A DNA stretch of 64,000 bases from an uncultured Amnibacterium sp. (GCF_964250715.1 NZ_CAXUGX010000003.1:116368-180367), one strand, 5' to 3'. Positions 36,250 through 57,572 are shown, counted from the first letter of the stretch. Notes: generated from the sequence alone by a model not told the origin. Numbers and translations: made by a program.

Positions 36250-36253
36250 CCTG

Positions 36254-37890: not shown

Positions 37891-39051
37891 TCAGCCCACC
37901 GGCTCGGTGAGCCGGATCGCCGCGAGGCCGACCACGGTCGCGATCGACTCGGCGAGCTCTTTGCCCTCGGCGCCGGCGAACTGCTCGACGCCGTGGTCCT
38001 GGTGGAAGCCCCAGCCCTCGGGGCGTCCGACTCCGACGATCGCCGCGGGCACCCGCTGCGTCACGTTGCCGAAGTCCGTCGCGAAGGGAAGTGCCGGAGG
38101 ATCTTCGACCATGGTGCGACCGGCTGCGGCGAACGCATCGGCCATGACTGCCGTGACGGCCGCGTCCGGACGGATCGCCTGGATCAGGGACGAAGTGGAC
38201 CAGACGGCCCCTTCGAGCCCGGCATGCGCCGGCGCCATGACCTCCTCCAGGCCCTCCTCGGTGTCGGCGAAGGCGAGGAATCGCACCGTGAGGGTGAGCC
38301 CTACCCCCTCCTCCACGTCGCCGTCCAGGATGGCGGTTTCCACCATGAGGCGCGCCGGATCGGTCTCGTCGGCGATTCTGGCCAGTTCGCGCAGCGCGTC
38401 CATCGGACCGGACGGGGCACCGCGGACGAGGCTCCGGTGGCCGCCGACGATCGCCGTCTCACGGCGCATCCAGAGCGCACGCTGCCACACGGTGTCGATG
38501 AACTCGGGGTGCGCGTAGAGCGCCACGTCGATGTCGTCCCACACGCCCGCGGCAGCAGTCACCGCCTTACCGCTGCCGAGCGTGCGGGTTCCGGCCGAAT
38601 GGATCTCGTCCGCCGGGCATCCGACGACCACGAACGAGCCCGTCAACCGCTCGCTGATCGCGGCGAGCGCGAGGGCGGTGCCGAGGATGCCGCCGGACAT
38701 CGGTCCGTGCCCGCACGCGGGCACCGCCTCGATCGTCCCATCGGGCCGATGGGTCGTCACGGCGTCGTAGACGGTTGCGACCCCGACGCGCCGGCCCGGA
38801 AGCGCTCCGCGCAACTCGGCACGGAATGCGGTGGGCATGCCGGCGACCCCGCGTCGAACCTGATAACCGGCTGCCTCGAGCCTGTCGGCGAGGTAGCCGC
38901 AGGTCTCGATCTCCTCGTGTGCGAGCTCGGGATGCGAGTTGATGAAGTCCACGGCCGCCGCGATGGAGGCGCGCTGCGCGGACAGTGCTGCGAGGTAGGT
39001 CGCGTCGAGTGGTCTCGATGGCACGTGGCTCTCCACTGTCGGGTCGGTCAT
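37891..39051 (-). CDS. M20-family amidohydrolase/peptidase (M20D/AbgB-like)
   Basis: 386 aa from MTDPTVESH... ELAHEEIET, PACGHGPMSGG metal-site block. The upstream part of the 659-aa listed ORF is rejected. Confidence 0.75.
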   Translation of the reverse strand: MTDPTVESHVPSRPLDATYLAALSAQRASIAAAVDFINSHPELAHEEIETCGYLADRLEAAGYQVRRGVAGMPTAFRAELRGALPGRRVGVATVYDAVTTHRPDGTIEAVPACGHGPMSGGILGTALALAAISERLTGSFVVVGCPADEIHSAGTRTLGSGKAVTAAAGVWDDIDVALYAHPEFIDTVWQRALWMRRETAIVGGHRSLVRGAPSGPMDALRELARIADETDPARLMVETAILDGDVEEGVGLTLTVRFLAFADTEEGLEEVMAPAHAGLEGAVWSTSSLIQAIRPDAAVTAVMADAFAAAGRTMVEDPPALPFATDFGNVTQRVPAAIVGVGRPEGWGFHQDHGVEQFAGAEGKELAESIATVVGLAAIRLTEPVG

Positions 39052-39219
39052 TGAGACGGCGGGAACGGCCTTCGCGCAGGTGAACCGCGGCGATCGCCTA
39101 CGAGGGGAGCTTCCAGGTGACGAGAGTACCGAGTCGTATGCTGAGAAAGGTCGTCGAGCGAACGAGACACGCGGGCGGTGTCCGAGCGCCCCGGGCGCAC
39201 CCCTGAAGAGGACGAACTT

Positions 39220-40380
39220 GTGAAAGCACCCGACTTCACCCTGACCGCCGGCCCGACGATGGCCGCCGAGCGCACATTGCACGCGCTCGGCTCGCAGATC
39301 GTCCATCATCTCGATCCGAGCTTCATCGAGACCTTCCGCCGCACCACCGAGAAGGCGGCGGCGTTCTTCCACACGGGGAACGACATGCTCCTCCTGCAGG
39401 GTGAGGGCATCCTGGCGCTGGAGGGGGCGGCGCGGTCCCTCACTCGTCCGGGGATGCATGTGCTCAACCTGGTGCAGGGTGTCTACGGCAAGGGCATGGG
39501 GCAGTGGCTCGCGAGCTACGGCACGGTGCTGCACGAGATCGAGGTCGCGTACAACGAGGCCGTCGACCCGGCCGATGTGGATGAGTACCTCACCGCGCAT
39601 CCGGAGATCGAGCTCGTGACGATCGTGCACTCCGAGACGCCCTCGGGGACGATCTCGGACTGCTCCAGGATCGGTCCGATCGCCCACAGTCACGGTGCGC
39701 TGACCCTGGTCGATGCACTCTCGTCGATCGGCGGGGTGGAGTTCGAACCGGATCAGTGGCAACTCGACGTGTGCGTCTCCGGCGGCCAGAAGTGCCTGGG
39801 CGGCCCCGTCGGCGTCGCGATGGTGTCGGTCAGTCCCGCCGCCTGGGAGCGGATGCTGGCCAATGAGCATGCGCCGCGCTACTCCTACATCTCACTGATC
39901 GACTGGAAGATCGGATGGCTGGAGAACGGCACGTTCCCGTTCACCCCGTCGGTCACGGATGTCGTCGGTCTCGAGGCAGCGCTCGATGCGATTCTCGAGG
40001 AGGGCGTCGAGAACTCGATCGCCCGTCATGCGAAGGCCGCGGCGGTCACGCGCGCCGGCGTCCGCTCCATGGGCCTGCAACTGTGGCCGGTGTCCGAGGC
40101 GATCTCGGGCAACCCGATCACCGCGGTCCGGGTTCCGGACGGGATCGTGCACACGGATCTGAGCGCGCACATCCGAGAGCGGTACAGCGTGATGCTCTCC
40201 ACCGGCCAGAGCGCCGGGAACCTGATCCACCTCGCGCACATGGGTCCCACGGCGACCGGTATGCACCAGATCATCGGACTCGCCGCCCTCGGCGGAGGGC
40301 TCATCGACCTCGGCGCGGACGTCGACCTCGGGGCGGGGATCGAAGCGGCCATGCGTGTGCTCGGTGGCGCTGCGTCATGA
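39220..40380 (+). CDS. class-V (AGXT-type) aminotransferase; by context pyridoxamine-pyruvate aminotransferase-like, copy 1
   Basis: 386 aa from GTG 39220. FTLTAGP, LNLVQGVYGKGMG, HSETPSGT, PLP-lysine block SGGQKCLGGP, FPFTPSV, AHMGPTA. These blocks match my recollection of Mesorhizobium loti PPAT. Confidence 0.8.
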   Translation: MKAPDFTLTAGPTMAAERTLHALGSQIVHHLDPSFIETFRRTTEKAAAFFHTGNDMLLLQGEGILALEGAARSLTRPGMHVLNLVQGVYGKGMGQWLASYGTVLHEIEVAYNEAVDPADVDEYLTAHPEIELVTIVHSETPSGTISDCSRIGPIAHSHGALTLVDALSSIGGVEFEPDQWQLDVCVSGGQKCLGGPVGVAMVSVSPAAWERMLANEHAPRYSYISLIDWKIGWLENGTFPFTPSVTDVVGLEAALDAILEEGVENSIARHAKAAAVTRAGVRSMGLQLWPVSEAISGNPITAVRVPDGIVHTDLSAHIRERYSVMLSTGQSAGNLIHLAHMGPTATGMHQIIGLAALGGGLIDLGADVDLGAGIEAAMRVLGGAAS

Positions 40381-40450
40381 CCCGAGCGTGCCGAACCCGT
40401 CCACTCAGCCGCTCGCACGTTAAGTCATTGTTTCGGCCCCGTGCTTGCCC

Positions 40451-40479
40451 TTGACGAGAAGGGGGTTCCAACGGATAAC
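40451..40479 (+). promoter_or_regulatory. candidate sigma-70-type promoter of the MHPC-oxygenase operon
   Basis: TTGACG (40451-40456), 17-nt spacer, GATAAC (40474-40479), in an unusually AT-rich 160-bp gap. Confidence 0.3.
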
Positions 40480-40540
40480 GTCTTACTCGCCCGATGATAA
40501 AGAGCCTGCACATGGTAAGAAAAACTTCGAGGAATCCATC

Positions 40541-41692
40541 ATGAGCTCCACTTTCGACACCCGGCACGCCGAAATCTCGGGCGCCGGCTTCGCCGGTCTG
40601 ACCGCATCCATCGCCCTCGCGCGTCAGGGGTGGTCGGTGCGTGTCCACGAACGCGCCGGTCAGCTGCGTGAACAGGGCGCGGGGATCGTCCTCTGGCAGA
40701 ACAGTCTCCGGGTGCTCGACGCCTTCGGGCTGACCGATGAGATCAACGCGGGTTCGATGACGCCGCCCTACTACGAGACCCGGATGCAGAACAGCATCGT
40801 CTCCGACGAGGATCTGGCGGGCATCCGGTGGCGGACCATGACGAGGCCGTTCCTCCACTCGGTGCTCGCCTCCGCCGCTCGACGCGAGGGCGTCGAGATC
40901 CTCACGGGCTCGACGGTGGTGGGTGCCACCGAACAGGGCACCCTGCGCCTGACGGACGGCACGGAGTTCGAGGCGGACCTCGTCATCGGTGCGGACGGTG
41001 TCGGTTCGCCCGTGCGCGACTCCCTCGGGATCGAGTTCGACCGGCAGACCAGTCGCGACGGCATCTCCCGGTTCCTGGTCCCGCGCAAGAAGGCCGAGCT
41101 CCAGGCGATCGAGCCCGACACCGACTGGGACAACATGATCGACTTCTGGAACCTCGAACCCCGGGTGCTCCGCGTGCTCTACACGCCGGCGAACGAGAAC
41201 GAGCTCTACATCGCGCTCATGGCACCCTCCGACGACCCGCAAGGATCGGCGGTTCCGATCGACCTCGATCTCTGGACGTCGATCCATCCGCAGCTCGCTC
41301 CCGTGCTCGAGGAGGCGGTCAAGGTCGAGGGCAAGTACTACGGGTACCAGACCACCCGCCTCGAGCAGTGGACCAAGGGACGCGTCGCGCTGGTAGGGGA
41401 CGCCGCGCACGCGATGTGCCCGGCTCTGGCGCAAGGCGGGGGCTGCGCGATCATGAACGCCTACACCGTCGCCCAGGCGGCATCAGAGTCCGACATCGCC
41501 GATATCCCGGAGGCACTGGGGGAGTGGGAGCGGCTCGAGCGGCCTCTCACCGATCGCTGCCAGAGCCGCTCGCAGGACTACGCGAACACCCGGGGCATGG
41601 CCTACGGCAACCAGTTCACCGGCGACGTGAACGAGACGACCCTCTACGACCCCACGCACCGCGAGCGCCACCGCCAGGACGCGGTGGCGTGA
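40541..41692 (+). CDS. FAD-dependent ring-opening monooxygenase, 2-methyl-3-hydroxypyridine-5-carboxylate (MHPC) oxygenase-like
   Basis: 383 aa from ATG 40541 (SD GAGGAA). AEISGAGFAGLTASIAL, TPPYYETRM, WRTMTRPFLH, ADLVIGADGVGSPVRD, NENELYIALMAP, GRVALVGDAAHAMCPALAQGGGCA. Confidence 0.8.
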   Translation: MSSTFDTRHAEISGAGFAGLTASIALARQGWSVRVHERAGQLREQGAGIVLWQNSLRVLDAFGLTDEINAGSMTPPYYETRMQNSIVSDEDLAGIRWRTMTRPFLHSVLASAARREGVEILTGSTVVGATEQGTLRLTDGTEFEADLVIGADGVGSPVRDSLGIEFDRQTSRDGISRFLVPRKKAELQAIEPDTDWDNMIDFWNLEPRVLRVLYTPANENELYIALMAPSDDPQGSAVPIDLDLWTSIHPQLAPVLEEAVKVEGKYYGYQTTRLEQWTKGRVALVGDAAHAMCPALAQGGGCAIMNAYTVAQAASESDIADIPEALGEWERLERPLTDRCQSRSQDYANTRGMAYGNQFTGDVNETTLYDPTHRERHRQDAVA

Positions 41693-41714
41693 GCGGCAGA
41701 GAGACGAGGCCGGC

Positions 41715-42308
41715 ATGTTCCCCGAGATCGATCCCTACTACCGGGTGCGCGAGTGGTTCGGTTTCGTGCAGGAGATCAGCCATGAGGGCGGCCCCGTGCC
41801 GGACGAGCCGCTCTACAAGGCGGTGTCGGGCGTGGTCATCGCCAATCCGTTCGCGGGCCGCTACGTCGAGGATCTCTCGCCGCTGACGGCGCCGAGTGCG
41901 AGCCTCGGCACCGCCCTCGGTGCACGCGTGCTCGCCCTGCTCGGCGGACGCCCGGTGCAGGGCTATGGCAAAGGCGGCATCGCGGGCGTCAACGGCGACC
42001 AGGATCACGTGGTGGCGTGCATCACCACGGTCTTCGGCGATGCGTTCCGCGCCGGGGTCGGGGGCGGCGCCGCCTGGATCTCGTCGGCGTCCAAGACGGC
42101 GTCGGCTGGAACACCCATCGACATCCCGCTGGCGTTCAAAGACGAGCTGTATGTCCGCTCCCACTACGACGCCGTCACCCTCACCGTGCCGGACGCGCCG
42201 CGACCGGACGAGTTGCTCATCTGCGTGGGTGCGTCGACCCGTGGCCGGATCCACGAGCGCGTGGGCGGTCTCAGTCGCGACGAGGCGATCGCCCGACTCT
42301 CGAACTAG
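41715..42308 (+). CDS. 'amino-acid synthesis' family protein (DUF1185-like), function unknown
   Basis: 197 aa. Pattern ..VIANPFAGRYVEDL.., GYGKGGIAGVNGDQDHVVACITT.., ..IPLAFKD.. as in the uncharacterised AA_synth family (recollection, not searched). Confidence 0.6.
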   Translation: MFPEIDPYYRVREWFGFVQEISHEGGPVPDEPLYKAVSGVVIANPFAGRYVEDLSPLTAPSASLGTALGARVLALLGGRPVQGYGKGGIAGVNGDQDHVVACITTVFGDAFRAGVGGGAAWISSASKTASAGTPIDIPLAFKDELYVRSHYDAVTLTVPDAPRPDELLICVGASTRGRIHERVGGLSRDEAIARLSN

Positions 42309-42335
42309 CCCTCCCTCGTAACGAAAGGCACGCGC

Positions 42336-43097
42336 ATGGCGTACACAGCCGGCAGGTTCCACCAGGACGAGTCCATCTCGAACGCCCTCGACGATGTCGC
42401 TCGCGCGCACCGCATCCTCGAACTCGAGGGCCACGGCGACATGTCGATGGGCCATATCTCCTACCGTGATCCGTTCGGCCGCGGATTGTGGCTCAAGCGC
42501 GGGAACCTGGCCCTGTCGGAGGTCGAGGGGAACGACTTCGTGCTCATCGACTTCGACGGCACCATGCTGGAGGGAACGGGCCTCCGCCATCTGGAGTGGC
42601 CGCTCCACGCCGAGATCATGCGTGCCCGTTCCGACGTGCACTTCGTCGGCCACTCGCACGCGCACTACGCCACCGTCTTCGGTGCCACCGACCAAGAGCT
42701 GGGGCCGTTCAACAACCACGGCGTGTGGTTCGCAGACCACGGCGTGCCCCGCTTCAGTGACACCAGCCAGATCGTGACCACAGTCGAGCTCGGTGTCGAG
42801 GTGGCGAGGCAACTCGGCGACGCCGAGGCGATCCTGTTGAAGAACCACGGCATCGCGTTCGTCGGCGACGACGTGGCCGAGATGATGCTCGCGGGGATCT
42901 TCCTCGAGTGGGCGTCCAAGTTCCAACTCGACCTGCTCTCGACGGGAGTGACGTTCGATCGCCCGGACCACGAGGAGAGCGTCGAGAAGCGTCGCCGGAT
43001 CTACCCGCCGAAGGCCCAGCGCAACTACTGGATGTACTTCAACCGCAAGCTGGATCGTGTCGAGGCCCTTCAGGGCATCGGCATCGCCCAGGTCTGA
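42336..43097 (+). CDS. class-II aldolase/adducin-fold protein, 3-hydroxy-2-methylpyridine-4,5-dicarboxylate decarboxylase-like
   Basis: 253 aa. Metal-site histidines in HFVGHSHAHY, LLKNHGIAFVG block. Confidence 0.75.
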   Translation: MAYTAGRFHQDESISNALDDVARAHRILELEGHGDMSMGHISYRDPFGRGLWLKRGNLALSEVEGNDFVLIDFDGTMLEGTGLRHLEWPLHAEIMRARSDVHFVGHSHAHYATVFGATDQELGPFNNHGVWFADHGVPRFSDTSQIVTTVELGVEVARQLGDAEAILLKNHGIAFVGDDVAEMMLAGIFLEWASKFQLDLLSTGVTFDRPDHEESVEKRRRIYPPKAQRNYWMYFNRKLDRVEALQGIGIAQV

Positions 43098-43161
43098 CCA
43101 GTCGTCCCGCCCACCATCACCAGTACCCAGACGCACTTCCCAGAAGAAAGCGAGACAGGCC

Positions 43162-44097
43162 ATGAGCTCACTTCCCACTATCGCGACCGTCGTCGGATCG
43201 GGCACGATGGGCCCCGGTATCGCGGCGACACTCGCCCGCGCCGGCGCCGAGGTTCGTGTCTACGACATCAGCCCAGAAGCACTCGCCCGTGCCGAGAACA
43301 CCTTCGCGTTCGCCTCCGGTGTGCTCGACCAGCTGGGCAGTGACTCGGTCGAGGGCGGCTCGGTCAGCTTCACCACCGACATCGGCGAGGCGCTGGCCGG
43401 CTCCCTGTTCGTGATCGAAGCCGTGCCGGAGAAGCTCGAGCTGAAGAAGAGCGTGCTCGAGCAGATCGAGGGCCTGGTCGGCGACGACGTGATCATCGCG
43501 ACCAACACCTCGGGCATCCCGATCTCGACGATGGCCGAGTCGATGACGGTGCCTGCTCGGCTCGTGGGCATGCACTGGTCGAACCCGCCGCACCTGATCC
43601 CGATGATCGAGGTGATCCCGGGCGACGCCACCGACACGGCGGTCACCGACCAGCTGGTCGACATCGTGAAGGCGTTCGGCTATCACCCGGTGATCGAGAA
43701 GGAGATCGCGGGCTTCGTGGAGAACCGCGTGCTCTACGCGATCCTCCGCGAGTGCGTCGCCCTGCTCGAAGAGGGGATCGTCACGCCGGAAGGCCTTGAC
43801 ACGGCGGTCAAGTGGGGCATCGGATACAAGCTGTCGGTGATCGGCCCCACACGGCTGCTGGACATGGCCGGCATGGACATCTACGCAGCGGTCTCGAGTT
43901 ACCTGAACAAGGAGCTGAACTCCGATACCGAGACGCCCCAGGTCGTCACCGAGATGATCGCGGCAGGCAAGCTCGGCTTCAAGACCGGTGGCGGCATGTA
44001 CGAGTACGGCGAGGGCGATGTCGCGGCGAAGCTGAAGGACATCACCGCCGGGCTGGTCGCAGCGCGCAAGACCCTGTCGAGCATCACCCCGGTCTGA
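43162..44097 (+). CDS. 3-hydroxyacyl-CoA-dehydrogenase-family NAD dehydrogenase, FHMPC dehydrogenase-like
   Basis: 311 aa. VVGSGTMGPGIA Rossmann, TNTSGIPIS, HWSNPPHLIPMIEV, GFVENRVL blocks. Confidence 0.8.
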   Translation: MSSLPTIATVVGSGTMGPGIAATLARAGAEVRVYDISPEALARAENTFAFASGVLDQLGSDSVEGGSVSFTTDIGEALAGSLFVIEAVPEKLELKKSVLEQIEGLVGDDVIIATNTSGIPISTMAESMTVPARLVGMHWSNPPHLIPMIEVIPGDATDTAVTDQLVDIVKAFGYHPVIEKEIAGFVENRVLYAILRECVALLEEGIVTPEGLDTAVKWGIGYKLSVIGPTRLLDMAGMDIYAAVSSYLNKELNSDTETPQVVTEMIAAGKLGFKTGGGMYEYGEGDVAAKLKDITAGLVAARKTLSSITPV

Positions 44098-44939
44098 TGT
44101 CCGCACTCGCGGTGGAGCGCACGGCCGACGGACTGCAGCGGACCCGGGGAGCGGATGTCGATATCGCCTTCCGGATCCGCGGCAGCGGCCCCGCGGTCGT
44201 GCTGCTGCACGGCACATCGGCGAGTCATGCGGTGTGGGAGCCGATCTCGACTGCGCTCGCGTCCTTCGCCACGGTCATCACCTTGGATCAGCGGGGCCAC
44301 GGCCGCAGCGACAAACCGCCGACCGGATACACCGGTCCCGATTTCGCCGGCGATGTCGTGACCGTCTTGGACGCCCTGGGAATCGACTCCGCGATCGTTG
44401 GCGGTCATTCGCTCGGCGCTCGGAACGCGTGGCTGGTCGGAGCGCTGCACCCGGAGCGCATCAGGGGAGTACTCGCCGTCGACTACACCCCCTGGGTCGA
44501 GACCGAGGTGATCGACGTGCTGCAGGTGCGGGTCGCGGCGGGCGATCGCGCATTCACCTCCGTCGACGAGATCGAGGCGTACCTGCAGAGCCGCTACCCG
44601 CTGCTCCCCACCGACGCGGTCGTCCGACGGGCCGAGTGGGGTTACCGCCAGGGTGCCGACGGTCGTTGGCGGCCGCTCGCCGACCCTGTTGCCATGGACC
44701 AGCTGATCGACGGGTTCCGCACCCCGTGGGCCGAGGAGTTCGAGGCTGTCGGCGTGCCGATGAGTCAATTGCGGGGCGCGCACAGCGCCATCGTCAGCGA
44801 CACGGCCTGGCAGACCGCCCTCGATGCCCGGCCGCAGGACCGAGCCGTCGTCGACCCCGATGCCGACCACTACCTACCCGAGGAGCACCCGCAGCTCGTG
44901 ATCGCCGAGTTGCAGCGATTCCTCGCTTTCGGGCGCTGA
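44097..44939 (+). CDS. alpha/beta hydrolase, alpha-(N-acetylaminomethylene)succinate (AAMS) amidohydrolase-like
   Basis: 280 aa. VVLLHGTSASH, nucleophile elbow GGHSLGA, C-terminal DADHYLPEEHP. Start ATG shares its A with the preceding TGA (TGATG). Confidence 0.75.
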   Translation: MSALAVERTADGLQRTRGADVDIAFRIRGSGPAVVLLHGTSASHAVWEPISTALASFATVITLDQRGHGRSDKPPTGYTGPDFAGDVVTVLDALGIDSAIVGGHSLGARNAWLVGALHPERIRGVLAVDYTPWVETEVIDVLQVRVAAGDRAFTSVDEIEAYLQSRYPLLPTDAVVRRAEWGYRQGADGRWRPLADPVAMDQLIDGFRTPWAEEFEAVGVPMSQLRGAHSAIVSDTAWQTALDARPQDRAVVDPDADHYLPEEHPQLVIAELQRFLAFGR

Positions 44940-44941
44940 TC

Positions 44942-45661
44942 GTGCGGATCATCGATGCCCACATGCATGTCGGCGAGTTCCCGCTCTTCGATGTTCGTCT
45001 CGACCGGCACAGCCTGGCCGGCTACCTCGGCGACAACGGCATCGATGTCGGCATGATCTTCAATCCCGACAACGCGCTCGTGCGCGACACCGTGCACGAG
45101 GTCGAGAACGCGTACGGCCTCTACTGGGCCAACCCGAAGAACCCGGATTGCGCCACCGAGCTGCGCGACTACCTCGCCGATCCGAAGTTCCGCGGTGTCA
45201 AGCTGCATCCACTGCTCGATGGCTACCACCCGGACGAGCCGTTCGTCTGGCCGGTCATCGAGGTGTTGATCGAACACGGGCTGCCCGCACTCATCCACTG
45301 CGGGCACCCGATCTTCACGCTGCCGTGGAGCATCGAGGAGCTGGTGACCCGATATGAGGAGGCCAAGATCATCCTCGGCCACATGGGGCACGGCAACATC
45401 GTCTACATCGACGGAGCGATCGCGGTCGCGTCACGGCATCCGAACGTGTGGCTCGAAACGTCGGGCATGCCGATGAGTTCGAAGATCCTCGAGGCCGTTC
45501 GGCGGGTCGGCAACGACAGGGTGATGTACGGATCGGACGGTCCGTTCCACCAGCCGAGGGTGGAGCAGCTCAAGGTGGAACTCGCCGGTCTTGACGCGGC
45601 CGATCTGGTCGAAGTGATGGCGGGCACGGCCGAACGGCTGTTCCTCGGGCCGCACGCCTGA
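44942..45661 (+). CDS. amidohydrolase-2 (TIM-barrel metal-dependent hydrolase/decarboxylase) family protein
   Basis: 239 aa from GTG 44942. IIDAHMHV (HxH), LIHCGHP, LGHMGHG, MYGSDGPF metal-ligand pattern. Confidence 0.75.
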   Translation: MRIIDAHMHVGEFPLFDVRLDRHSLAGYLGDNGIDVGMIFNPDNALVRDTVHEVENAYGLYWANPKNPDCATELRDYLADPKFRGVKLHPLLDGYHPDEPFVWPVIEVLIEHGLPALIHCGHPIFTLPWSIEELVTRYEEAKIILGHMGHGNIVYIDGAIAVASRHPNVWLETSGMPMSSKILEAVRRVGNDRVMYGSDGPFHQPRVEQLKVELAGLDAADLVEVMAGTAERLFLGPHA

Positions 45662-45669
45662 GCTGCGGA

Positions 45670-47217
45670 TCAGCCGTTCACGAATCGATCGGCGAACGAC
45701 TCGGCGATCGCCAACACCGCAGCATGGACCGGGCCGGCGGTGATCGACGGGATCACTGACGCGTCGACCACGGAGCAGTTGGTGAGGCCCCGCAGTCGCA
45801 GGTCGGGCGTGACGGGAGCATCGTCGGTCGCACCCATGCTCAGGGTTCCGACGGGGTGATGGTGGGTGATCGCCGCCCGCTGGATGAACGAGTCGACGGC
45901 ATCCGCGGCCGCCACGGATGCCCCGGGCAGCAGCTCCTCGCCGCGCCACTCGGCCATACCTGCCGACGAGCCCACCAGCCGGGCGCGCTCGAGGGCGGCA
46001 CGGAACGTCGCCCGGTCGTGCTCTGTGTCGAGGTAGTTGGGGTCGACGATCGGCGCCGCGTCGACGGCGGGTCCGCTGATCCGCACCGACCCGCGACTGG
46101 TCGGGTTGGTCACCCCGAAGAGCAGCGAGTACGCGCCGCCGGCGGGCAGGTCCGCAAGGCCGGGCTGGTAGACCTCCGAGCCACTCGGCCCGACGACGCA
46201 GCCGACCACGACGTCCGGCGCTCCGCTGACGGCATCGAGTGCGCCGAGCGAGAGGTAGGTCATCGACTCGGAGAGCTGCAGGCGCGACGGAGGGACGGTC
46301 CGCGCTGCCGCGTAGACGTTGCCCGCACCGAGCAGATGGTCGTGCAGGTTGCGCCCCACGCCGGTCGACTCGACGAGGGTCTGCACGGCCGCCGCGGCGA
46401 GCACCGTCGGATCCCCGACTCCGGAGCGCATCAGCAGCAGCGGGTCGGCGAGCGAGCCGGCGCACAGGATGACGGCATCCGCTTCGACGCGTTCGAGCCT
46501 GCCGCGCACCTCGTACTCCGTTCCGACGACGCGGTCGCCGTCGATGACGAGTCGATGTACCGTCGCGCCCTCGACGACGGTCAGATTGGGGCGGTCGAGC
46601 ACCGGGTCGAGGTACACGTCGGCGACGGTGACGCGGCTGCCGTTGCGGATCGTCAGCGAGTTCGGGGTCGCACCCAGCATCTCGCCGCCGTTGTGGTCGG
46701 GGATGCGGGGCACGCCGAGCGTCGTCCAGGCGTCGAGGTAGCTCTGCACGAGCGGGCTGCTGAGGTCCGGGCCGGGCAGCAGCACCGGGAGCGGACCGTC
46801 TGCGCCGTGCACGTCGCTCGCGCCACCCGAGAACGATTCGTACCCGATGAAGTACGGCAGGAGAGACTCCCAGGACCAGCGGTCATCGCCCGTGGCGGCG
46901 ACCCAGCGATCGAAGTCGGCACGGCACCCCCGCATGTGCGCCATGGCGTGCATCGTGCTCGATCCACCGAGGCCCCTGCCGCGTGGCCAGTCGAGTGACC
47001 TGCCGGCGAGGCCGGGCTGCGGAGTCGTCTCGTAAGCCCAGTCGTACGACTTGCCGTAGTTGAACGGCCATCGCTCCGGCCGACGCATGTCGGGATCGGT
47101 GATCCGTCCGCCCGCCTCGAGCACCACGACGCGCCTGGACGGATCTGCGCTCAGTCGGTTGGCGAGCACGCATCCGGCGGAGCCCGCTCCGATGATCAGA
47201 ACGTCATGAGCGGTCAT
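45670..47217 (-). CDS. GMC-family FAD oxidoreductase (pyridoxine 4-oxidase-like or 4-pyridoxate dehydrogenase-like)
   Basis: 515 aa. DVLIIGAGSAGCVLANRLS, GRGLGGSSTMHAMAHMRG, C-terminal HHHPVGTLSMG. No C-terminal TM anchor. Confidence 0.85.
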   Translation of the reverse strand: MTAHDVLIIGAGSAGCVLANRLSADPSRRVVVLEAGGRITDPDMRRPERWPFNYGKSYDWAYETTPQPGLAGRSLDWPRGRGLGGSSTMHAMAHMRGCRADFDRWVAATGDDRWSWESLLPYFIGYESFSGGASDVHGADGPLPVLLPGPDLSSPLVQSYLDAWTTLGVPRIPDHNGGEMLGATPNSLTIRNGSRVTVADVYLDPVLDRPNLTVVEGATVHRLVIDGDRVVGTEYEVRGRLERVEADAVILCAGSLADPLLLMRSGVGDPTVLAAAAVQTLVESTGVGRNLHDHLLGAGNVYAAARTVPPSRLQLSESMTYLSLGALDAVSGAPDVVVGCVVGPSGSEVYQPGLADLPAGGAYSLLFGVTNPTSRGSVRISGPAVDAAPIVDPNYLDTEHDRATFRAALERARLVGSSAGMAEWRGEELLPGASVAAADAVDSFIQRAAITHHHPVGTLSMGATDDAPVTPDLRLRGLTNCSVVDASVIPSITAGPVHAAVLAIAESFADRFVNG

Positions 47218-47220
47218 GGC

Positions 47221-47949
47221 TCAGTTGCGGGTATGGCCGCCATCGACCACGAGGGTCTGTCCGGTGATCCAGCCGGCTTTCTCCGAGGCGAGGAAGGCGA
47301 CGGCGGGAGCGATGTCCGCCGGCACGCCCCTGCGGTCGAAAGCCTGGGCAGGCAGCACATAGGCGAACCCTTCGTTGTGGGGGCTCGCGAGCACGCCCTC
47401 GGTCTCGGTCAGCCCCGGGGCGACGGCGTTGATGGTGATGCCGTCCTTGCCGATCTCACCGGCGAGCGCGCGGACGAAGCCGATGGACCCACCCTTGGTC
47501 GCGACGTAGTGCGCGAGGTTGGGCGTGCCCGCCACGAAGGTGTTCGAGGCGATGTTGACGATGCGGCCGTACCCCGCCGCGGCCATCACCGGAATGATCG
47601 ACTTCGTCATGAGGAACATGCCGTCGAGGTTCACCGACATGACCCGGCGCCACTCGGCGAAATCCAGCTCGGGCCACGGCACGAAGGGAACCAGCGCCGC
47701 GTTGTTCACGAGGATGTCGATGCGGCCCAACTCGTCGACGACCTCCGCGGCGAAGGCGGCGACCTGCTCGGGGTCGCTGACGTCGAGCTTCTTCGCGACG
47801 CCGCCGATCTCTGCAGCGACCGTGGTCGCGCCGTCGAGGTTGATGTCGGCCACGACCACTGTGCAGCCGTCCGACGCGAGTTCCTTGGCGATCGCGGCAC
47901 CGATGCCCTGTGCTGCTCCGGTGACGACGGCGACGCGCTGCTCAGTCAT
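47221..47949 (-). CDS. classical SDR, pyridoxal 4-dehydrogenase-like by context
   Basis: 242 aa. VVTGAAQGIG, NNAA, YVATK. Confidence 0.8.
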   Translation of the reverse strand: MTEQRVAVVTGAAQGIGAAIAKELASDGCTVVVADINLDGATTVAAEIGGVAKKLDVSDPEQVAAFAAEVVDELGRIDILVNNAALVPFVPWPELDFAEWRRVMSVNLDGMFLMTKSIIPVMAAAGYGRIVNIASNTFVAGTPNLAHYVATKGGSIGFVRALAGEIGKDGITINAVAPGLTETEGVLASPHNEGFAYVLPAQAFDRRGVPADIAPAVAFLASEKAGWITGQTLVVDGGHTRN

Positions 47950-48012
47950 GTGCTCTTGCTCTCTCGTTCTTTGGAGGATCGGGTCGGATCGGGTCGTGTT
48001 CGTCAGCGTCGT

Positions 48013-48771
48013 TCACGCGCCGCCGTAGTTGTCCGGGGCGAGCTTCCAGCCCTGGTAGGAGGCGAGTTCGTGCGACGGATAGATGTCGGCATCGCGCGTG
48101 CGGGCGAGGTAGTTGAGGCGGCGGATCGCCTCGACCGACTTGGTCGGGTCCAGGTGGAATCCCGCGATCCACTCCTTCTCGAGCGTGGTGCGCGTGTACG
48201 CGGCGTCGCCGCAGAACAGCATGTTGCGCTCGTGCTCCAGCTCGATCAGCAGCGAGTAATGACCGATGGTGTGGCCGGGGGTTTCGAAGAGCCAGACGCC
48301 GGGGACGATCTCGTAGTCGCCGGAGATCGGCTTGTACGTGACCGCGGGGTGGTCGAACGAGACGTCGGAGTAGCCGAGGCGCTCGAACGGCTCGGGAACC
48401 TTGGCGTGGCGCAACTCCTCCTTGTGCACGAGCGTGGTCGCGTTCGTGAGGTATTTGTTGCCGCCCACATGGTCGAAGTGGAAGTGCGAGTTGACCACGA
48501 TGTCCACGTCCTCCGGCTTGTAGCCGCAGAGGGCGAGCTGCGCGGGGATCGTCTGTTCGGGGGTCTGGAGCGGCTCCTCGAACGGCAGCACGGCGTTCAC
48601 GTGGTCCAGGTCGTAGCCGGTGTCGTACAGGATCAGTGCATCGGGATGCTCGATGAGCACCGAGTACACGGGGAATCGCACGGGGGTTCCGGCGTCGATG
48701 TGCCAGTGGACGTCCGACGCGTCGATGACGAGGGTTCCGCCGTCGAGCAGGTACACCTTCGAATCGGTCAT
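48013..48771 (-). CDS. metallo-beta-lactamase-fold lactonase, 4-pyridoxolactonase-like
   Basis: 252 aa. SHFHFDHVGG (HxHxDH), TPGHTIGH, CGDAAY. Confidence 0.8.
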   Translation of the reverse strand: MTDSKVYLLDGGTLVIDASDVHWHIDAGTPVRFPVYSVLIEHPDALILYDTGYDLDHVNAVLPFEEPLQTPEQTIPAQLALCGYKPEDVDIVVNSHFHFDHVGGNKYLTNATTLVHKEELRHAKVPEPFERLGYSDVSFDHPAVTYKPISGDYEIVPGVWLFETPGHTIGHYSLLIELEHERNMLFCGDAAYTRTTLEKEWIAGFHLDPTKSVEAIRRLNYLARTRDADIYPSHELASYQGWKLAPDNYGGA

Positions 48772-48932: not shown

Positions 48933-49409
48933 TCACGGAAGCGGTGTGGGTGGGGGCGTGGCCAGTCGCCGGCCGTCCTCGAAGCGCGCCTCACCGGAGT
49001 AGAGCTCCCAGACGTAGCAATGGTCGAGCATCGGCGTCGTGTCGAAGTCGCCGATGCAGGTGGCGTCCTGGTACCTGGGCGTGCCGTGCAGGTCGTAGTA
49101 CACGCGACAGAGGACCTTCCAGGTGCCCCCCTTGGCGACGGCGGGGTCGTTGAAGAGATGTTCGGAGGGGGTCCAGCAGGCGGTCGACCGGACCGTCCCT
49201 CCGCGGAGTTTCAGCGCCTTCGGTGCCACGTTCGAGAGCTGCACGAACGCGGCGGTGTCCAGCGGGACGACTGCCACGTTGGTGGCCATCGGCATCGGCG
49301 AGCCGGCTGGTGTCGAGCTGGCCGACGGCGGATTCGTTGTCTGGCGGGCACATCCGGCGAGCACGAGCAGCATGATCAGGCAGGTGGCGAACCGGGACCG
49401 GGCTCGCAT
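48933..49409 (-). CDS. secreted Cys-containing lipoprotein of unknown function
   Basis: 158 aa from MRARSRFATCLIMLLVLAGCA (lipobox LAGC). Pro/Ser linker then a ~110-aa domain with 4 Cys. Confidence 0.6.
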   Translation of the reverse strand: MRARSRFATCLIMLLVLAGCARQTTNPPSASSTPAGSPMPMATNVAVVPLDTAAFVQLSNVAPKALKLRGGTVRSTACWTPSEHLFNDPAVAKGGTWKVLCRVYYDLHGTPRYQDATCIGDFDTTPMLDHCYVWELYSGEARFEDGRRLATPPPTPLP

Positions 49410-49474: not shown

Positions 49475-49542
49475 CGTTCTCATGCGTTGACCGGCGTCTC
49501 GTCGTTCTCATAGTGTCAGCAACCGTTGACACATCGTGAGAA
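49475..49542. promoter_or_regulatory. repeated half-sites and a 38-bp palindrome upstream of the BMP transporter operon (candidate operator)
   Basis: CGTTCTCAT and CGTTGAC each occur twice. TTCTCA-ta-GTGTCA-gcaaccgt-TGACAC-atcg-TGAGAA spans 49505-49542. Lies between the divergent starts 49409(-) and 49593(+). Confidence 0.45.
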
Positions 49543-49592
49543 TCGGTGGCATCCCGCCAGACCGGATCACCGACCGAGAGGAACGCTTTCTC

Positions 49593-50681
49593 ATGCACAG
49601 CCCCACCTCGTTCGCCAGGCGATCGTTCAGTACCAGACGCGCGGTACCCCTGTTCACGGCGATCGCGCTTGCGGCCGTCCTCACCGGATGCGCGGGCCGC
49701 GGCACCGCCCCGGCCAACCCCTCCGCGAAGACGGATTTCACGACCGTCACGATCGTCACCCCTGCAACCGAGTCCGACCACGGTTGGAACCAGATGGGGC
49801 TCGCGGGAGCGAAGGCGGCCGCCGCGGCCACCTCGATGAAGCTCGCAAGCGACACGAACGTCGGATACGACAACACCCAGACGATCCTCACGCAGGCCGC
49901 TCAGAAGTCCGGCGTCGGCTTCGTCATCGCCCATGCCAGCGGATTCGGCCAGGCCGCGGCATCGGCGAACGCCAAGACGGGCGTGCCGTTCCTCATCACC
50001 GACGTGCCGACCGCACAGGTGAAGAACAAGATCGGCGTCATCACGTTCAGTGCGCAGCAGGGCGGGTACCTGGCCGGCATCGCCGCAGCGAAGACGACGA
50101 AGACGAACAAGCTCGGGATCGCCATCTCGGCCGACGATGTCAACTGGTTCACGATGTCCGGCGGCTTCATCGCCGGCGCGAAGAGCGTGAACCCCTCAAT
50201 CAAGGTCAATGTCGCCTACATCGGCGCAGCCTCCTACGACGACTCGGCCGGCGGCAAGAAGGTCGTCCAGCAGCTCATCGCCGCGGGTGACGACGTGATC
50301 TTCGGCATGGGCGACGGCGCCACGGTCGGCTACGTCGCAGCAGTCGACGAGGCCAACCAGGCCGGTAACAAGGTGAAGTACATCGCCGACATCGGTGATG
50401 TCTCCGATCTCGTGACCAACCCCGACGAGGTGCTGACCTCGGTGCTGTGGATCTTCGACGGCGCGTACACGCAGGCGATCAAGGACATCAAGGCCGGTTC
50501 GTTCGCCAGGGCGCCCTACGACCTCAATCTGAAGAATGGTGGCATCAAGCTCCAGAAGACCGCCGACATGACCGCGGACATCACGGCTGCGACCACCAAG
50601 GCGCAAGCCGGTATCGAGGACGGCAGTATCGCGGTGCCGGACACCACCACGAAGAAACAGTTGACGGCGCTGCTCAACTGA
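49593..50681 (+). CDS. BMP/PnrA-family ABC substrate-binding lipoprotein
   Basis: 362 aa from MHSPTSFARR... Lipobox LTGCAG. Bmp-family blocks (SDHGWNQ, GFGQAA, FGMGDGATVGY). Confidence 0.8.
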   Translation: MHSPTSFARRSFSTRRAVPLFTAIALAAVLTGCAGRGTAPANPSAKTDFTTVTIVTPATESDHGWNQMGLAGAKAAAAATSMKLASDTNVGYDNTQTILTQAAQKSGVGFVIAHASGFGQAAASANAKTGVPFLITDVPTAQVKNKIGVITFSAQQGGYLAGIAAAKTTKTNKLGIAISADDVNWFTMSGGFIAGAKSVNPSIKVNVAYIGAASYDDSAGGKKVVQQLIAAGDDVIFGMGDGATVGYVAAVDEANQAGNKVKYIADIGDVSDLVTNPDEVLTSVLWIFDGAYTQAIKDIKAGSFARAPYDLNLKNGGIKLQKTADMTADITAATTKAQAGIEDGSIAVPDTTTKKQLTALLN

Positions 50682-50792
50682 CTCGAGCGGAGCAGGGGGA
50701 GGCCGGGCGGCCCGAGTCAGACTCTCGCCCGTTCTCCCCACTGCACCGGTCACGAACTGCACCGACCACGAATCGAAGGGCCGGACACCGCG

Positions 50793-52398
<1,606 letters not shown>

Positions 52399-52412
<14 letters not shown>

Positions 52413-53598
52413 GACCCCGACCGAGAGCACGGACGGACTCACCAGCGACATCACGCCGCTCGACGACGACGCGGAACTGGTGACCACCCAGAAGTCGTCC
52501 CCCCGCAGGCGTGCCTTCGACATCGTCGTGCGCTCCATCGTCCCGATCGTGCTCGCTTTGATCGTGGCCGCCCTGATCCTGCTCGCCCTCGGCAAGAATC
52601 CGCTTCAGTTCTACGGCGCCGTCATCGAGAACGGGCTCATGGGCCAGAACTGGCAGAACAGCCTCGTCATGATGACGCCGCTGCTGCTCATCGCGATCGG
52701 CCTGATCGTGGTGTTCCGAGGCCAGCTGTGGAACCTCGGGTACGACGGGCAGTTCCTGCTGAGCGGTGTCGTCGTCGCCGGTCTCGCCCCGCAGCTCATC
52801 GGCGCGACATCCCCCGGCGTCGCCTATCTCGTGCTGACGATCGCCGCGATCGCCATCGCCGCCGCGTGGACTCTCATCCCCGCGTGGCTCAAAGCCTATT
52901 TCGGGACCAACGAGATCATCACGACGATCGTGATGTCGACGATCGGCGTGGGACTCACCAACATCCTGATCGAGTACGTCTTTCAGAACCCGGAGGTCCG
53001 CACACCCCAGACCAGGGCCATCGATCCGGGGGACCTCCTGCCCTACATCCCGGGTACGCAGGTGACCATCGGCTTCCTCGTGGCGATCGTGGTCGCCGTC
53101 GCGTTCCAATTCGTGCTCAGCCGCACCTCGTTCGGCTTGCGTCTCGACGTCTTCGGATCGAGTGCGAAGGCCGCCCGTCACGTGGGGATCAACTCGCGCA
53201 CCATGACGATCCTGCTGTTCCTGATCAGTGGCGGCTTGATCGGTCTGGCGGCGGCGATGGACATCTTCGGCCAGTGGGGCTACATGCGCACCAACTGGAA
53301 CCCTTCCTACGGCAACGCGATTCTGCCGTTCGTCTTCCTCGCCCGGCTGAGCCCGGTTGGATCGATCCCGTTCATCGCCTTCTACTCGGTGTTCGCGACC
53401 GGCGGCACCATCGCCGCGCAGGAGTCGAACGTGTCCGTGAACTTTCTGCAGATCGTCGTCGCGCTCATCCTCGTGTTCATGACCGTGACGGAATACATCG
53501 GGACCAAGCGCGACCTCGGCCAGAGCTACCTGCCCGACGAGCTGAAGGGCGCGATCCGCAGACCCCTCAGCGCCCTCACAGGAAGAGTGCGCCCGTGA
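52399..53598 (+). CDS. ABC permease (NupB/RbsC type)
   Basis: About 400 aa with a hydrophilic N-tail then 9-10 TM. Start ATG 52399 or GTG 52393. Overlaps the ATPase end. Confidence 0.8.
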
Positions 53599-54527
53599 CC
53601 GACCTCATGACGCCCACGTTCATCGCGGCATTCATCGTCGCCTGCCTCGCGGGCGCGATTCCCCTCATGCTGGCGTCCATCGGAGAGACGGTGGGTGAGC
53701 AGTCGGGCGTGCTGAACCTCGGCATCGAGGGCGTCATGCTCATGGGCGGGTACTTCGGGTACGTCGTCGCACTCGGCACACATTCCACCTGGCTCGGGAT
53801 GCTCGGAGGCCTGGTCGCCGGCGCCGTCACCTCGCTCGTGCTGCTGATCCTGAATGTCTGGTTCGGGCTGAACCAGATCGTGGTCGGTATCGCGATCACC
53901 GCCGCGGGCGGTGGAATCACAACCGTTCTCTACGACCAGCTCTATGCGCAGACCGCGCCGCGCGTCGTGACCGACAACTGGACGATCCCGGTGCTGTCGG
54001 ACATTCCGGTGGTCGGGCACTCGCTCTTCAGTCAGCCCGCGATGTTCTGGGTATCGCTCGTGATCGCGGTCATCGTGGCGTGGTTCCTGATCAGAACCAA
54101 TTGGGGCCTCAGCATCAGAGCCGCCGGGCAGAAGCCGTCGTCACTCGACGCCGCCGGTGGCAGCGTGATGCGAACCCGTTCGCAGGCGGTGCTGCTGGGG
54201 GGTGTGCTCTCCGGTCTCGGCGGTGCATACCTCTCCGTGCTCGCGACCAGCGCGTTCACGCCCTTCATGACGAACGGGCTCGGCTACATCGCGATCGTGG
54301 TGACGATGCTCTCGCGCGGCAAGATCCTGCGGGTCGTCATCGTGTCCCTGCTCTACGGCGTGACGATCGCGGTCGGGACCGTCCTGCAGCTGACCAGCCT
54401 GAACGTCTCGACGGACCTGATCACGATGCTGCCGTACATCGTGGTCATGATCGTGCTGCTGATCTTCGGCCGGGACGTCAACAACTCGCCCGTTCTCGGT
54501 GCGCCGTACACCCGCGGCGCGCGCTGA
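53595..54527 (+). CDS. ABC permease (NupC/RbsC type)
   Basis: 310 aa. GTG 53595 overlaps the previous TGA (GTGA). Multi-TM. Confidence 0.8.
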   Translation: MTDLMTPTFIAAFIVACLAGAIPLMLASIGETVGEQSGVLNLGIEGVMLMGGYFGYVVALGTHSTWLGMLGGLVAGAVTSLVLLILNVWFGLNQIVVGIAITAAGGGITTVLYDQLYAQTAPRVVTDNWTIPVLSDIPVVGHSLFSQPAMFWVSLVIAVIVAWFLIRTNWGLSIRAAGQKPSSLDAAGGSVMRTRSQAVLLGGVLSGLGGAYLSVLATSAFTPFMTNGLGYIAIVVTMLSRGKILRVVIVSLLYGVTIAVGTVLQLTSLNVSTDLITMLPYIVVMIVLLIFGRDVNNSPVLGAPYTRGAR

Positions 54528-57516: not shown

Positions 57517-57572
57517 CAGGCAGGATGACAGCACCGGTTCCTCCGCAGAGCCACGTTCAAGGAGACCATCGC

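Follow-up and report, generated by a model that had tools for sequence, protein, structure and literature searches.

The individual enzymes of vitamin B6 catabolism have, to our knowledge, been resolved in just two proteobacteria. Our reference was the cluster of Mesorhizobium loti MAFF303099 (mlr6785-mlr6807), with enzymes compared through PDB entries 2z9u, 4ha6, 3ndr, 3aj3, 4om8, 2z7b, 3gmb and 3kxp. From Microbacterium luteolum YK-1, single enzymes are reportedly described, namely a pyridoxine 4-oxidase and an AKR-type pyridoxal dehydrogenase. B6 catabolites have lately been proposed as inter-species signals, which lends ecological interest to the question of which soil- or plant-associated actinobacteria make or consume them. 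A partial parallel comes from the trigonelline pathway, where succinic semialdehyde is freed by an alpha/beta hydrolase acting on N-acyl-aminomethylene-succinate. For Acinetobacter baylyi ADP1, a cluster for trigonelline degradation is cited that includes the hydrolase TgnD and the DUF1185 protein TgnF (PMC7913881).

A candidate B6 degradation locus in Amnibacterium

Here we analyze a locus in a 64,000-nucleotide stretch of DNA (the window) from an uncultured Amnibacterium sp. The first-pass annotation, made from the sequence alone, had recognized an actinobacterium; indeed, the genome shares its family with that of Lysinimonas soli, which carries a related locus (L012), and thus belongs to the Microbacteriaceae. 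We consider it very probable that the region is an accessory catabolic locus for vitamin B6 degradation pathway I, of the type found in M. loti and Pseudomonas MA-1. Seven of the nine M. loti enzymes have clear counterparts here, and the activities and substrates given below are predicted from this orthology and from synteny. Gene calls were based on frame-specific GC3 (0.85-0.90) together with translations.

37891..39024, minus strand: M20-family amidohydrolase (Pfam PF01546, NCBIfam TIGR01891)
39178..40380, plus strand: predicted pyridoxamine-pyruvate aminotransferase, copy 1 (PM to PL; PDB 2z9u)
40541..41692, plus strand: predicted MHPC oxygenase, FAD-dependent ring-opening step (PDB 3gmb/3alj)
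41715..42308, plus strand: DUF1185/AA_synth protein, uncharacterised (Pfam PF06684 at 1.8e-59)
42336..43097, plus strand: class II aldolase-fold protein, putative HMPDC 4-decarboxylase (Pfam PF00596)
43162..44097, plus strand: predicted FHMPC dehydrogenase, 3-hydroxyacyl-CoA dehydrogenase family (PDB 4om8)
44097..44939, plus strand: predicted (E)-2-(acetamidomethylene)succinate (AAMS) hydrolase, alpha/beta hydrolase (PDB 3kxp)
44942..45661, plus strand: Amidohydrolase-2 family metal hydrolase or decarboxylase, accessory (Pfam PF04909 at 8.4e-30)
45670..47217, minus strand: predicted pyridoxine 4-oxidase, GMC flavoprotein (PN to PL; PDB 4ha6/3t37)
47221..47949, minus strand: predicted pyridoxal 4-dehydrogenase, SDR type (PL to 4-pyridoxolactone; PDB 3ndr, NF047923)
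48013..48771, minus strand: predicted 4-pyridoxolactonase, metallo-beta-lactamase fold (PDB 3aj3, NF047925)
48933..49409, minus strand: small lipoprotein of 158 aa, no known family (lipobox LAGC)
49536..54527, plus strand: BMP/PnrA-type ABC importer, comprising a lipoprotein binding protein, tandem ATPase and two permeases (Pfam Bmp, ABC_tran x2, BPD_transp_2)
54579..55736, plus strand: predicted pyridoxamine-pyruvate aminotransferase, copy 2 (65% identity to copy 1)
55785..56549, plus strand: IclR-family regulator (Pfam HTH_IclR and IclR_C)

The core consists of two convergent operons, 39178-45661 (plus) and 48771-45670 (minus), with stop codons at 45661 and 45670, only 8 bp apart, bearing out the converging arrangement originally described. 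Packing is tight, with a 1-nt overlap and gaps of 3-64 bp, and translations revealed intact, full-length genes in which the catalytic motifs HxHxDH, YxxxK, GHSLG and QK were all found. The eight fold families listed in the first-pass annotation are all present as intact genes where it had placed them, but that list omitted the DUF1185 and amidohydrolase-2 genes inside the plus-strand operon. Likewise, the interval 39220-48771 proposed at that time captures the core of a locus that in fact spans ~37.9-56.5 kb of the window and continues past 48771. Beyond the core lie the M20 amidohydrolase, small lipoprotein, ABC importer, second aminotransferase paralog and IclR regulator.

Several features set the locus apart from the M. 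loti cluster. A second GMC gene for 4-pyridoxate oxidation is absent, as is the PEBP gene found with most clusters of this kind, and the putative aldolase-fold decarboxylase represents another, only distantly related type (28-31% identity to the Mesorhizobium-type enzyme). The regulator belongs to the IclR rather than the GntR family, the importer is BMP-type, and upper and lower pathway genes are fused into one compact locus. M. luteolum YK-1, a member of the same bacterial family, has a GMC pyridoxine 4-oxidase in common with this locus, whereas the pyridoxal dehydrogenase encoded here is of the SDR instead of the AKR type.

Predicted enzymes of the upper and lower pathway

In searches of solved structures, the E-value of each M. 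loti enzyme was set against that of the next unrelated match. The first-pass annotation had allowed that most products might prove closest to unrelated family members; instead, for seven products an M. loti B6 enzyme of pathway I was the top PDB match, ahead by 18-98 orders of magnitude. Copy 1 of the aminotransferase matched 2z9u at 2.7e-102 (next unrelated, 1.7e-38) and retains the lysine of the QKCLGG block; against NCBIfam NF046070 it scored 408.8 bits, under the cut-off of 600, with the next family at 188. NF046070 was also the best NCBIfam match of copy 2 (419.7 bits, below the equivalog cut-off), which ends the transporter operon here and likewise in two other loci (L017 and L062). The pyridoxine 4-oxidase matched 4ha6/3t37 over its full length at 1.4e-162 (next, 9.2e-82) and shares 54% identity with the first GMC gene in Mesorhizobium and Rhizobiaceae loci. 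The SDR-type pyridoxal 4-dehydrogenase (3ndr, 3e-77; next unrelated, 1.1e-59) and the lactonase (3aj3, 6.6e-77; next unrelated, 1.5e-34), which carries an HFHFDH motif, exceeded the 325-bit cut-offs of the NCBIfam equivalogs NF047923 and NF047925 with 389.9 and 423.2 bits, respectively.

In the lower pathway, the MHPC oxygenase matched 3gmb/3alj at 2.1e-125 over residues 36-406 (next, 1.1e-27), and a 383-aa database protein begins at its ATG, 40541. The peptides TPPYYETRM, NENELYIALMAP and GDAAHAMCPALAQGGGCA, first noted for their resemblance to the M. loti enzyme, were all located in this monooxygenase. The FHMPC dehydrogenase matched 4om8 at 5.8e-90 (next unrelated, 9.2e-44), with NF042925 as its best family (389.9 bits, under the 500 cut-off; next family, 204). 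The AAMS hydrolase, with its GHSLG nucleophile elbow, matched 3kxp at 9.3e-60 (next, 1.5e-18).

The putative HMPDC decarboxylase has the class II aldolase fold expected from the first-pass annotation but shows no particular closeness to Mlr6791. Its PDB matches were headed by pyruvic oxime dioxygenase and NovR; Mlr6791 (2z7b) ranked sixth at 2.2e-12, scoring no better than Fe(II) oxygenases of the same fold. In actinobacterial loci the gene accompanies that for the FHMPC dehydrogenase, and a decarboxylase role is suggested by fold, gene order and synteny.

We propose that B6 vitamers would enter through the BMP-type ABC importer. Pyridoxamine would then be transaminated to pyridoxal by one of the two PPAT paralogs and pyridoxine oxidized to pyridoxal by the GMC oxidase, after which the SDR dehydrogenase and lactonase would yield 4-pyridoxolactone and then 4-pyridoxate. 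Further on, the HAD-family dehydrogenase of the plus-strand operon would convert FHMPC to HMPDC, and the aldolase-fold protein could decarboxylate HMPDC to MHPC. The FAD oxygenase would open the MHPC ring to acetamidomethylene-succinate, and the alpha/beta hydrolase would release succinic semialdehyde, acetate, ammonia and CO2. Outside the locus, the genome also encodes a good candidate for succinate-semialdehyde dehydrogenase (541 bits, E 1e-162). An organism so equipped may be able to grow on B6 vitamers.

Possible routes of 4-pyridoxate oxidation and competing readings

The pathway had initially been called near-complete, an accurate choice of words: 4-pyridoxic acid dehydrogenase, the second GMC enzyme, is without a counterpart throughout the genome, which is 100% complete. 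The only two GMC genes are those for the pyridoxine oxidase and mycofactocin MftG, and the Mesorhizobium-type second GMC protein found the pyridoxine oxidase as its best match, at 36% identity. Similarly, no actinobacterial locus has a second GMC gene within 10 kb. We favour, as a guess, that both oxidations, including that of 4-pyridoxate to FHMPC, fall to the ortholog of FHMPC dehydrogenase; this step may instead be taken by the lone GMC oxidase or by a dehydrogenase encoded outside the locus. A GMC-free route could run through such a bifunctional dehydrogenase or through the divergent aldolase-fold protein, the latter being conceivable because Fe(II) oxygenases score as close to it as Mlr6791. 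We tentatively suggest, as a possibility somewhat short of an even bet, that actinobacteria use a distinct version of pathway I in which 4-pyridoxate is oxidized by a route lacking the GMC dehydrogenase and DUF1185 is an unrecognized component.

The missing dehydrogenase also invites the reading that the locus joins two functionally unconnected modules, with upper genes stopping at 4-pyridoxate for detoxification, signalling or excretion and lower genes using an imported downstream compound, such that the organism alone would not mineralize B6. A recent preprint regards 4-pyridoxolactone and 4-pyridoxate as excreted signals, and in Streptomyces and Arthrobacter the lower module stands alone with its own NMT1/THI5-type ABC importer. 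However, FHMPC, the first substrate of the lower module, is known only as a product of 4-pyridoxate oxidation, and the modules are fused tail to tail and co-inherited in ~25 Microbacteriaceae loci; we therefore regard this reading as unlikely. Far less probable still is that the locus targets another substituted 3-hydroxypyridine carboxylate and resembles B6 clusters through shared ancestry only. Relatives of the MHPC oxygenase below 50% identity do occur in unrelated clusters with a Rieske oxygenase, metallo-beta-lactamase or aldehyde dehydrogenase, and minimal clusters of oxygenase, DUF1185 and hydrolase lack the upstream genes in Pseudolabrys and Reyranella. Yet seven enzymes of this one locus, pyridoxal-specific ones included, are 41-70% identical to B6 enzymes, and two pass equivalog cut-offs.

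As a B6 degradation locus, the region adds a further instance of an established pathway, one that annotation models already recognize in part; it is a solid annotation rather than a surprise. The initial view that actinobacteria offer isolated enzymes only has accordingly to be tempered: NCBIfam models for the SDR dehydrogenase, lactonase and putative B6 ABC binding protein pass their cut-offs, and JGI names close homologs as MHPC dioxygenase. Nonetheless, a compact locus from an actinobacterium that includes importer and regulator genes offers a second, experimentally convenient model for B6 catabolism. It indicates that the textbook list of nine enzymes is not universal, that one step may be solved differently and that at least one conserved gene, DUF1185, is not known to have been given a role. 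Two leads stand out as more novel: oxidation of 4-pyridoxate by a non-GMC route, and the association of DUF1185 with MHPC oxygenase across phyla.

Distribution and accessory genes

The locus is accessory and was not found in 17 same-genus genomes. The same block occurs in many other Microbacteriaceae (among them Lysinimonas, Leifsonia, Herbiconiux, Naasia, Microbacterium, Salinibacterium and Cnuibacter), a shorter lower module is seen in Arthrobacter, Streptomyces and Georgenia, and Mesorhizobium and Rhizobiaceae loci contain the same genes at 41-70% identity.

The DUF1185 gene, single-copy in the genome, is present in 60 of 65 loci with an oxygenase at least 50% identical and lies directly downstream of the oxygenase in 56. 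This adjacency is conserved in Actinomycetota and Alphaproteobacteria, with the Mesorhizobium and Rhizobiaceae loci (L065 and L059) placing DUF1185 after the oxygenase as here. Its PDB matches, 2qtp and 3byq, are both uncharacterised. The protein probably has an auxiliary role at the pathway's oxygenase/hydrolase end. It appears homologous to TgnF through their shared Pfam family, and by analogy may process the unstable enamine or formylsuccinate freed by the hydrolase. This locus and the trigonelline cluster of A. baylyi ADP1 both pair a DUF1185 protein with a pathway ending in succinic semialdehyde, whereas ring-opening chemistry and substrate differ.

The importer is syntenic in 25 loci, and its binding protein exceeds the 400-bit cut-off of NCBIfam NF047927 ('putative B6 ABC transporter substrate-binding protein') with 445.9 bits, consistent with an importer that probably carries B6 vitamers. 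The IclR protein probably regulates the locus; an IclR gene of 44-61% identity adjoins the cluster in 26 loci from actinobacteria, whereas those from alphaproteobacteria have GntR. The small lipoprotein gene sits beside the lactonase gene and is 64-67% identical in the same position in three further loci (L007, L011 and L012), its family occurring in 23 loci.

The amidohydrolase-2 gene, found only in a subset of Microbacteriaceae loci, was assigned a GTG start at 44942 because 44936 is a CTG; its product bears only remote likeness to gamma-resorcylate and 5-carboxyvanillate decarboxylases. A neighbouring AKR gene (56707-57516) was rejected as a locus member since same-genus genomes without the locus carry it too. 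The M20 amidohydrolase, divergent from the lower operon, is loosely associated with the cluster: in L010 and L011, the closest relatives, it is syntenic with 79-83% identity, and identity is 53-59% beside the cluster in Herbiconiux and Naasia loci.

The core locus and its Mesorhizobium loti counterparts

Because the G+C content of the window is 65-73%, genes were chosen by third-position G+C first and by family matches second. Ten intact genes lie within 39178-48771, seven on the plus strand and three on the minus strand, in two converging operons whose stop codons are separated by 8 bp; several gene junctions overlap or leave gaps of 3-64 bp. The amidohydrolase-2 gene starts with the GTG at 44942 (position 44936 is CTG and hence not a start), and among the fetched loci it is confined to a subset of Microbacteriaceae. 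An Rfam search of the window returned a single tRNA and nothing else. Each product was compared with all solved-structure sequences in the PDB.

Core genes by strand (plus strand in order), with predicted M. loti-type function, PDB entry, E value and E value of the next match
39178-45661, plus strand:
Aminotransferase; pyridoxamine-pyruvate aminotransferase (PPAT); 2z9u; 2.7e-102; next 1.7e-38
FAD monooxygenase; MHPC oxygenase; 3gmb; 2.1e-125; next 1.1e-27
DUF1185/AA_synth protein
Class II aldolase fold
3-Hydroxyacyl-CoA-dehydrogenase fold; FHMPC dehydrogenase; 4om8; 5.8e-90; next 9.2e-44
Alpha/beta hydrolase; acetamidomethylene-succinate (AAMS) hydrolase; 3kxp; 9.3e-60; next 1.5e-18
Amidohydrolase-2
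48771-45670, minus strand:
Metallo-beta-lactamase fold; 4-pyridoxolactonase; 3aj3; 6.6e-77; next 1.5e-34
SDR; pyridoxal 4-dehydrogenase; 3ndr; 3e-77; next 1.1e-59
GMC flavoprotein; pyridoxine 4-oxidase; 4ha6; 1.4e-162; next 9.2e-82

The first-pass annotation had read eight of these genes (all but DUF1185 and amidohydrolase-2) as the vitamin B6 degradation pathway of M. loti, and the comparison bears this out: M. loti B6 enzymes are the top solved-structure match for seven products, far above the next family. The peptides quoted in that annotation are likewise present in the monooxygenase translation. The SDR-type pyridoxal dehydrogenase and the lactonase pass the cut-offs of their NCBIfam equivalog models; PPAT and FHMPC dehydrogenase score under theirs, though far higher than against any other model. 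For the gene put forward as HMPDC decarboxylase, the class II aldolase fold is present, but the M. loti enzyme Mlr6791 (2z7b) is only the sixth match (E 2.2e-12), outranked by 8iqa, 8il8, 8ix6 and NovR, with some five bits spanning the whole group. The structures 8iqa, 8il8 and 8ix6 are pyruvic oxime dioxygenases (PMC11841055). Overall, the assignment as a predicted B6 cluster is correct and well supported by these comparisons. Three products were already named by NCBI curated models and close oxygenase homologs are named MHPC dioxygenase by JGI; the literature searched yielded no account of a B6 catabolic cluster from an actinobacterium.

Extent and accessory character of the locus

The locus extends past the span first proposed, 39220-48771, with genes added on both sides.

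Genes beyond the core
37891-39024, divergent, upstream: M20 amidohydrolase, syntenic in nearest relatives
48933-49409, minus strand: small lipoprotein, 158 aa, lipobox LAGC, no Pfam family
After the lipoprotein gene: BMP/PnrA-type ABC importer, binding protein of NCBIfam NF047927
After the importer: second PPAT paralog, sharing 65% identity with copy 1
After the importer, beside the second PPAT paralog: IclR regulator

The importer binding protein scores 445.9 bits against NF047927, "putative B6 ABC transporter substrate-binding protein" (cut-off 400), and in 23 Microbacteriaceae loci the lipoprotein gene keeps this position, flanked by the lactonase gene on one side and the importer operon on the other. 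An AKR (56707-57516) and an epimerase-like gene (57525-58469) were rejected as locus members on account of 69-80% nucleotide matches in cluster-free same-genus genomes. A ClpP gene, which like these two lies shortly past 56550, also has counterparts in same-genus genomes.

The family of the window's genome also includes the genome that carries locus L012 (Lysinimonas soli), recognized by its matching coordinates, and is therefore Microbacteriaceae. The oxygenase occurs in 16 of 300 sampled genomes of the family, which represent 13 of 101 genera. No copy was found in 17 same-genus genomes, where DNA searches with the whole region from 37.9 to 56.5 kb matched only generic ABC ATPase motifs. The nearest versions of the locus belong to other genera, with 77-96% protein identity (loci L010 and L011), and the G+C content of 24-56 kb (0.65-0.68) is 2-6 points below that of 4-24 kb (0.70-0.73). 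Patchy presence, the lack of a same-genus DNA match, lower G+C and nearest versions elsewhere thus indicate that the locus is accessory and has probably moved within the family. The interval 24000-56550 as a whole is probably accessory and specific to the strain; in the 17 same-genus genomes its DNA is matched only at generic ABC and dehydrogenase motifs. Among sequencing runs, small shares of the stretch occur in three, from one lichen-metagenome study; no RNA runs containing it are listed.

The 4-pyridoxate to FHMPC step

One of two points worth bench work, together with the DUF1185 association, is the oxidation of 4-pyridoxate. Pathway I requires a dehydrogenase for conversion of 4-pyridoxate to FHMPC, and the M. 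loti enzyme is a second GMC flavoprotein. Marker genes put the genome containing the window (2.88 Mb) at 100% completeness, and its GMC genes number just two, the pyridoxine oxidase and one passing the mycofactocin MftG model. Loci from Rhizobiaceae (L059) and Mesorhizobium (L065) contain a second GMC gene, flanked by the aldolase-fold and FHMPC dehydrogenase genes; used as queries on the window's genome, these second GMC proteins found the pyridoxine oxidase itself as best match, at 36%. Four other genomes gave only generic matches of 37-41%, a Streptomyces genome carrying the lower module (oxygenase, DUF1185, aldolase fold, FHMPC dehydrogenase and hydrolase) gave none at E 1e-30, and the 10 kb around each actinobacterial locus examined contain no second GMC gene. 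Given the absence of such a gene from a complete genome and from the surroundings of these loci, the gap in the predicted pathway belongs to the actinobacterial version and does not stem from the assembly.

The FHMPC dehydrogenase ortholog might perform both oxidations; the M. loti FHMPC dehydrogenase catalyzes the reverse reduction, from FHMPC to 4-pyridoxate. Alternatively, the GMC pyridoxine oxidase could serve double duty, a dehydrogenase could be encoded elsewhere, unlinked to the locus, or the divergent aldolase-fold protein could contribute new chemistry. Neighboring genes were rejected for this role: a CrtI-like flavoprotein (36206-37720) does not recur next to other clusters, and the AKR and epimerase-like genes also occur in locus-free same-genus genomes. 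A C-terminal membrane anchor, a feature attributed to the Mesorhizobium-type second GMC protein, was not evident in L059 or L065 and was discarded as a criterion. The other GMC gene of the window's genome (G000:C5:36163-37650, locus L002) scores 431 bits against the MftG model (cut-off 387), which makes a mycofactocin system probable in this organism.

Distribution of the lower module, DUF1185 and PEBP

At E 1e-30, a search of 1.8 billion representatives recovers 155 clusters for the MHPC oxygenase, which makes it a small family. All window proteins were mapped onto 80 named loci, each taken with 10 kb of flanking sequence. The five-gene block is 57-93% identical across Microbacteriaceae (Lysinimonas, Leifsonia, Schumannella, Gryllotalpicola, Herbiconiux, Naasia, Microbacterium, Salinibacterium, Microterricola and Cnuibacter), while in Arthrobacter, Streptomyces, Georgenia, Streptomonospora and Spirillospora identity is 46-52% for the hydrolase and 57-74% for the four proteins that precede it. 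Microbacteriaceae and two actinobacterial MAGs have, in addition to the block, the convergent oxidase/dehydrogenase/lactonase unit and the BMP importer; six of these loci lack the oxidase (L017, L039, L041, L052, L062 and L028). Streptomyces and Arthrobacter carry the lower module alone, with an NMT1/THI5-type ABC importer directly upstream, an IclR gene downstream and no other oxidoreductase nearby. This importer, directly upstream of the oxygenase gene at L037:7115-9948 (Streptomyces sp. 184) and likewise in L034, L045, L053 and L054, is a candidate for uptake of 4-pyridoxate or a related pyridine carboxylate.

A search for annotated proteobacterial clusters on plasmids gave distant oxygenase relatives, none above 45% identity. 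Representative P0135 was rejected as an M. loti type because its neighbors, a porin, a Rieske oxygenase and MarR, place it in a different pathway. Five loci from Micromonospora, Streptomyces and a Microbacterium MAG (L080, L082, L083, L087 and L089) hold oxygenase relatives of 45-49% identity beside different neighbors: a metallo-beta-lactamase-fold gene of ~376 aa, aldehyde dehydrogenase(s) and GntR, with a branched-chain-type ABC system in four of the five and neither DUF1185 nor the hydrolase. Their gene set probably represents a separate hydroxypyridine pathway.

In the set of 65 loci that share 50% or more oxygenase identity with the window, DUF1185 lies within 10 kb in 60 (immediately downstream in 56) and the hydrolase gene is present in 61; each is absent from all 15 loci with oxygenase relatives below 50%. 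The DUF1185-oxygenase association spans at least 25 genera and two phyla, related genomes being non-independent samples. Between the window's genome and alphaproteobacteria, DUF1185 is 65-71% identical and the oxygenase 54-57%; DUF1185 is single-copy in the former and absent from 14 model genomes. In the trigonelline pathway, the hydrolase substrate is a close analogue of acetamidomethylene-succinate. TgnF, a DUF1185 protein, is described in PMC7913881 as stimulating succinic-semialdehyde oxidation in trigonelline catabolism. By analogy, TgnF offers a possible parallel for the DUF1185 protein of the locus.

A PEBP-family gene (PF01161) is found with 53 of 79 loci, which include members of both phyla, and in the nearest relatives lies between the hydrolase and amidohydrolase-2 genes (L010:11331-11912, L011:14379-14825 and, in Lysinimonas soli, L012:14395-14850). 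It is missing from the window, where the corresponding site (44939-44942) shows a clean loss; the sole PEBP homolog in the window's genome, 32-38% identical, lies ~14 kb past the window end.
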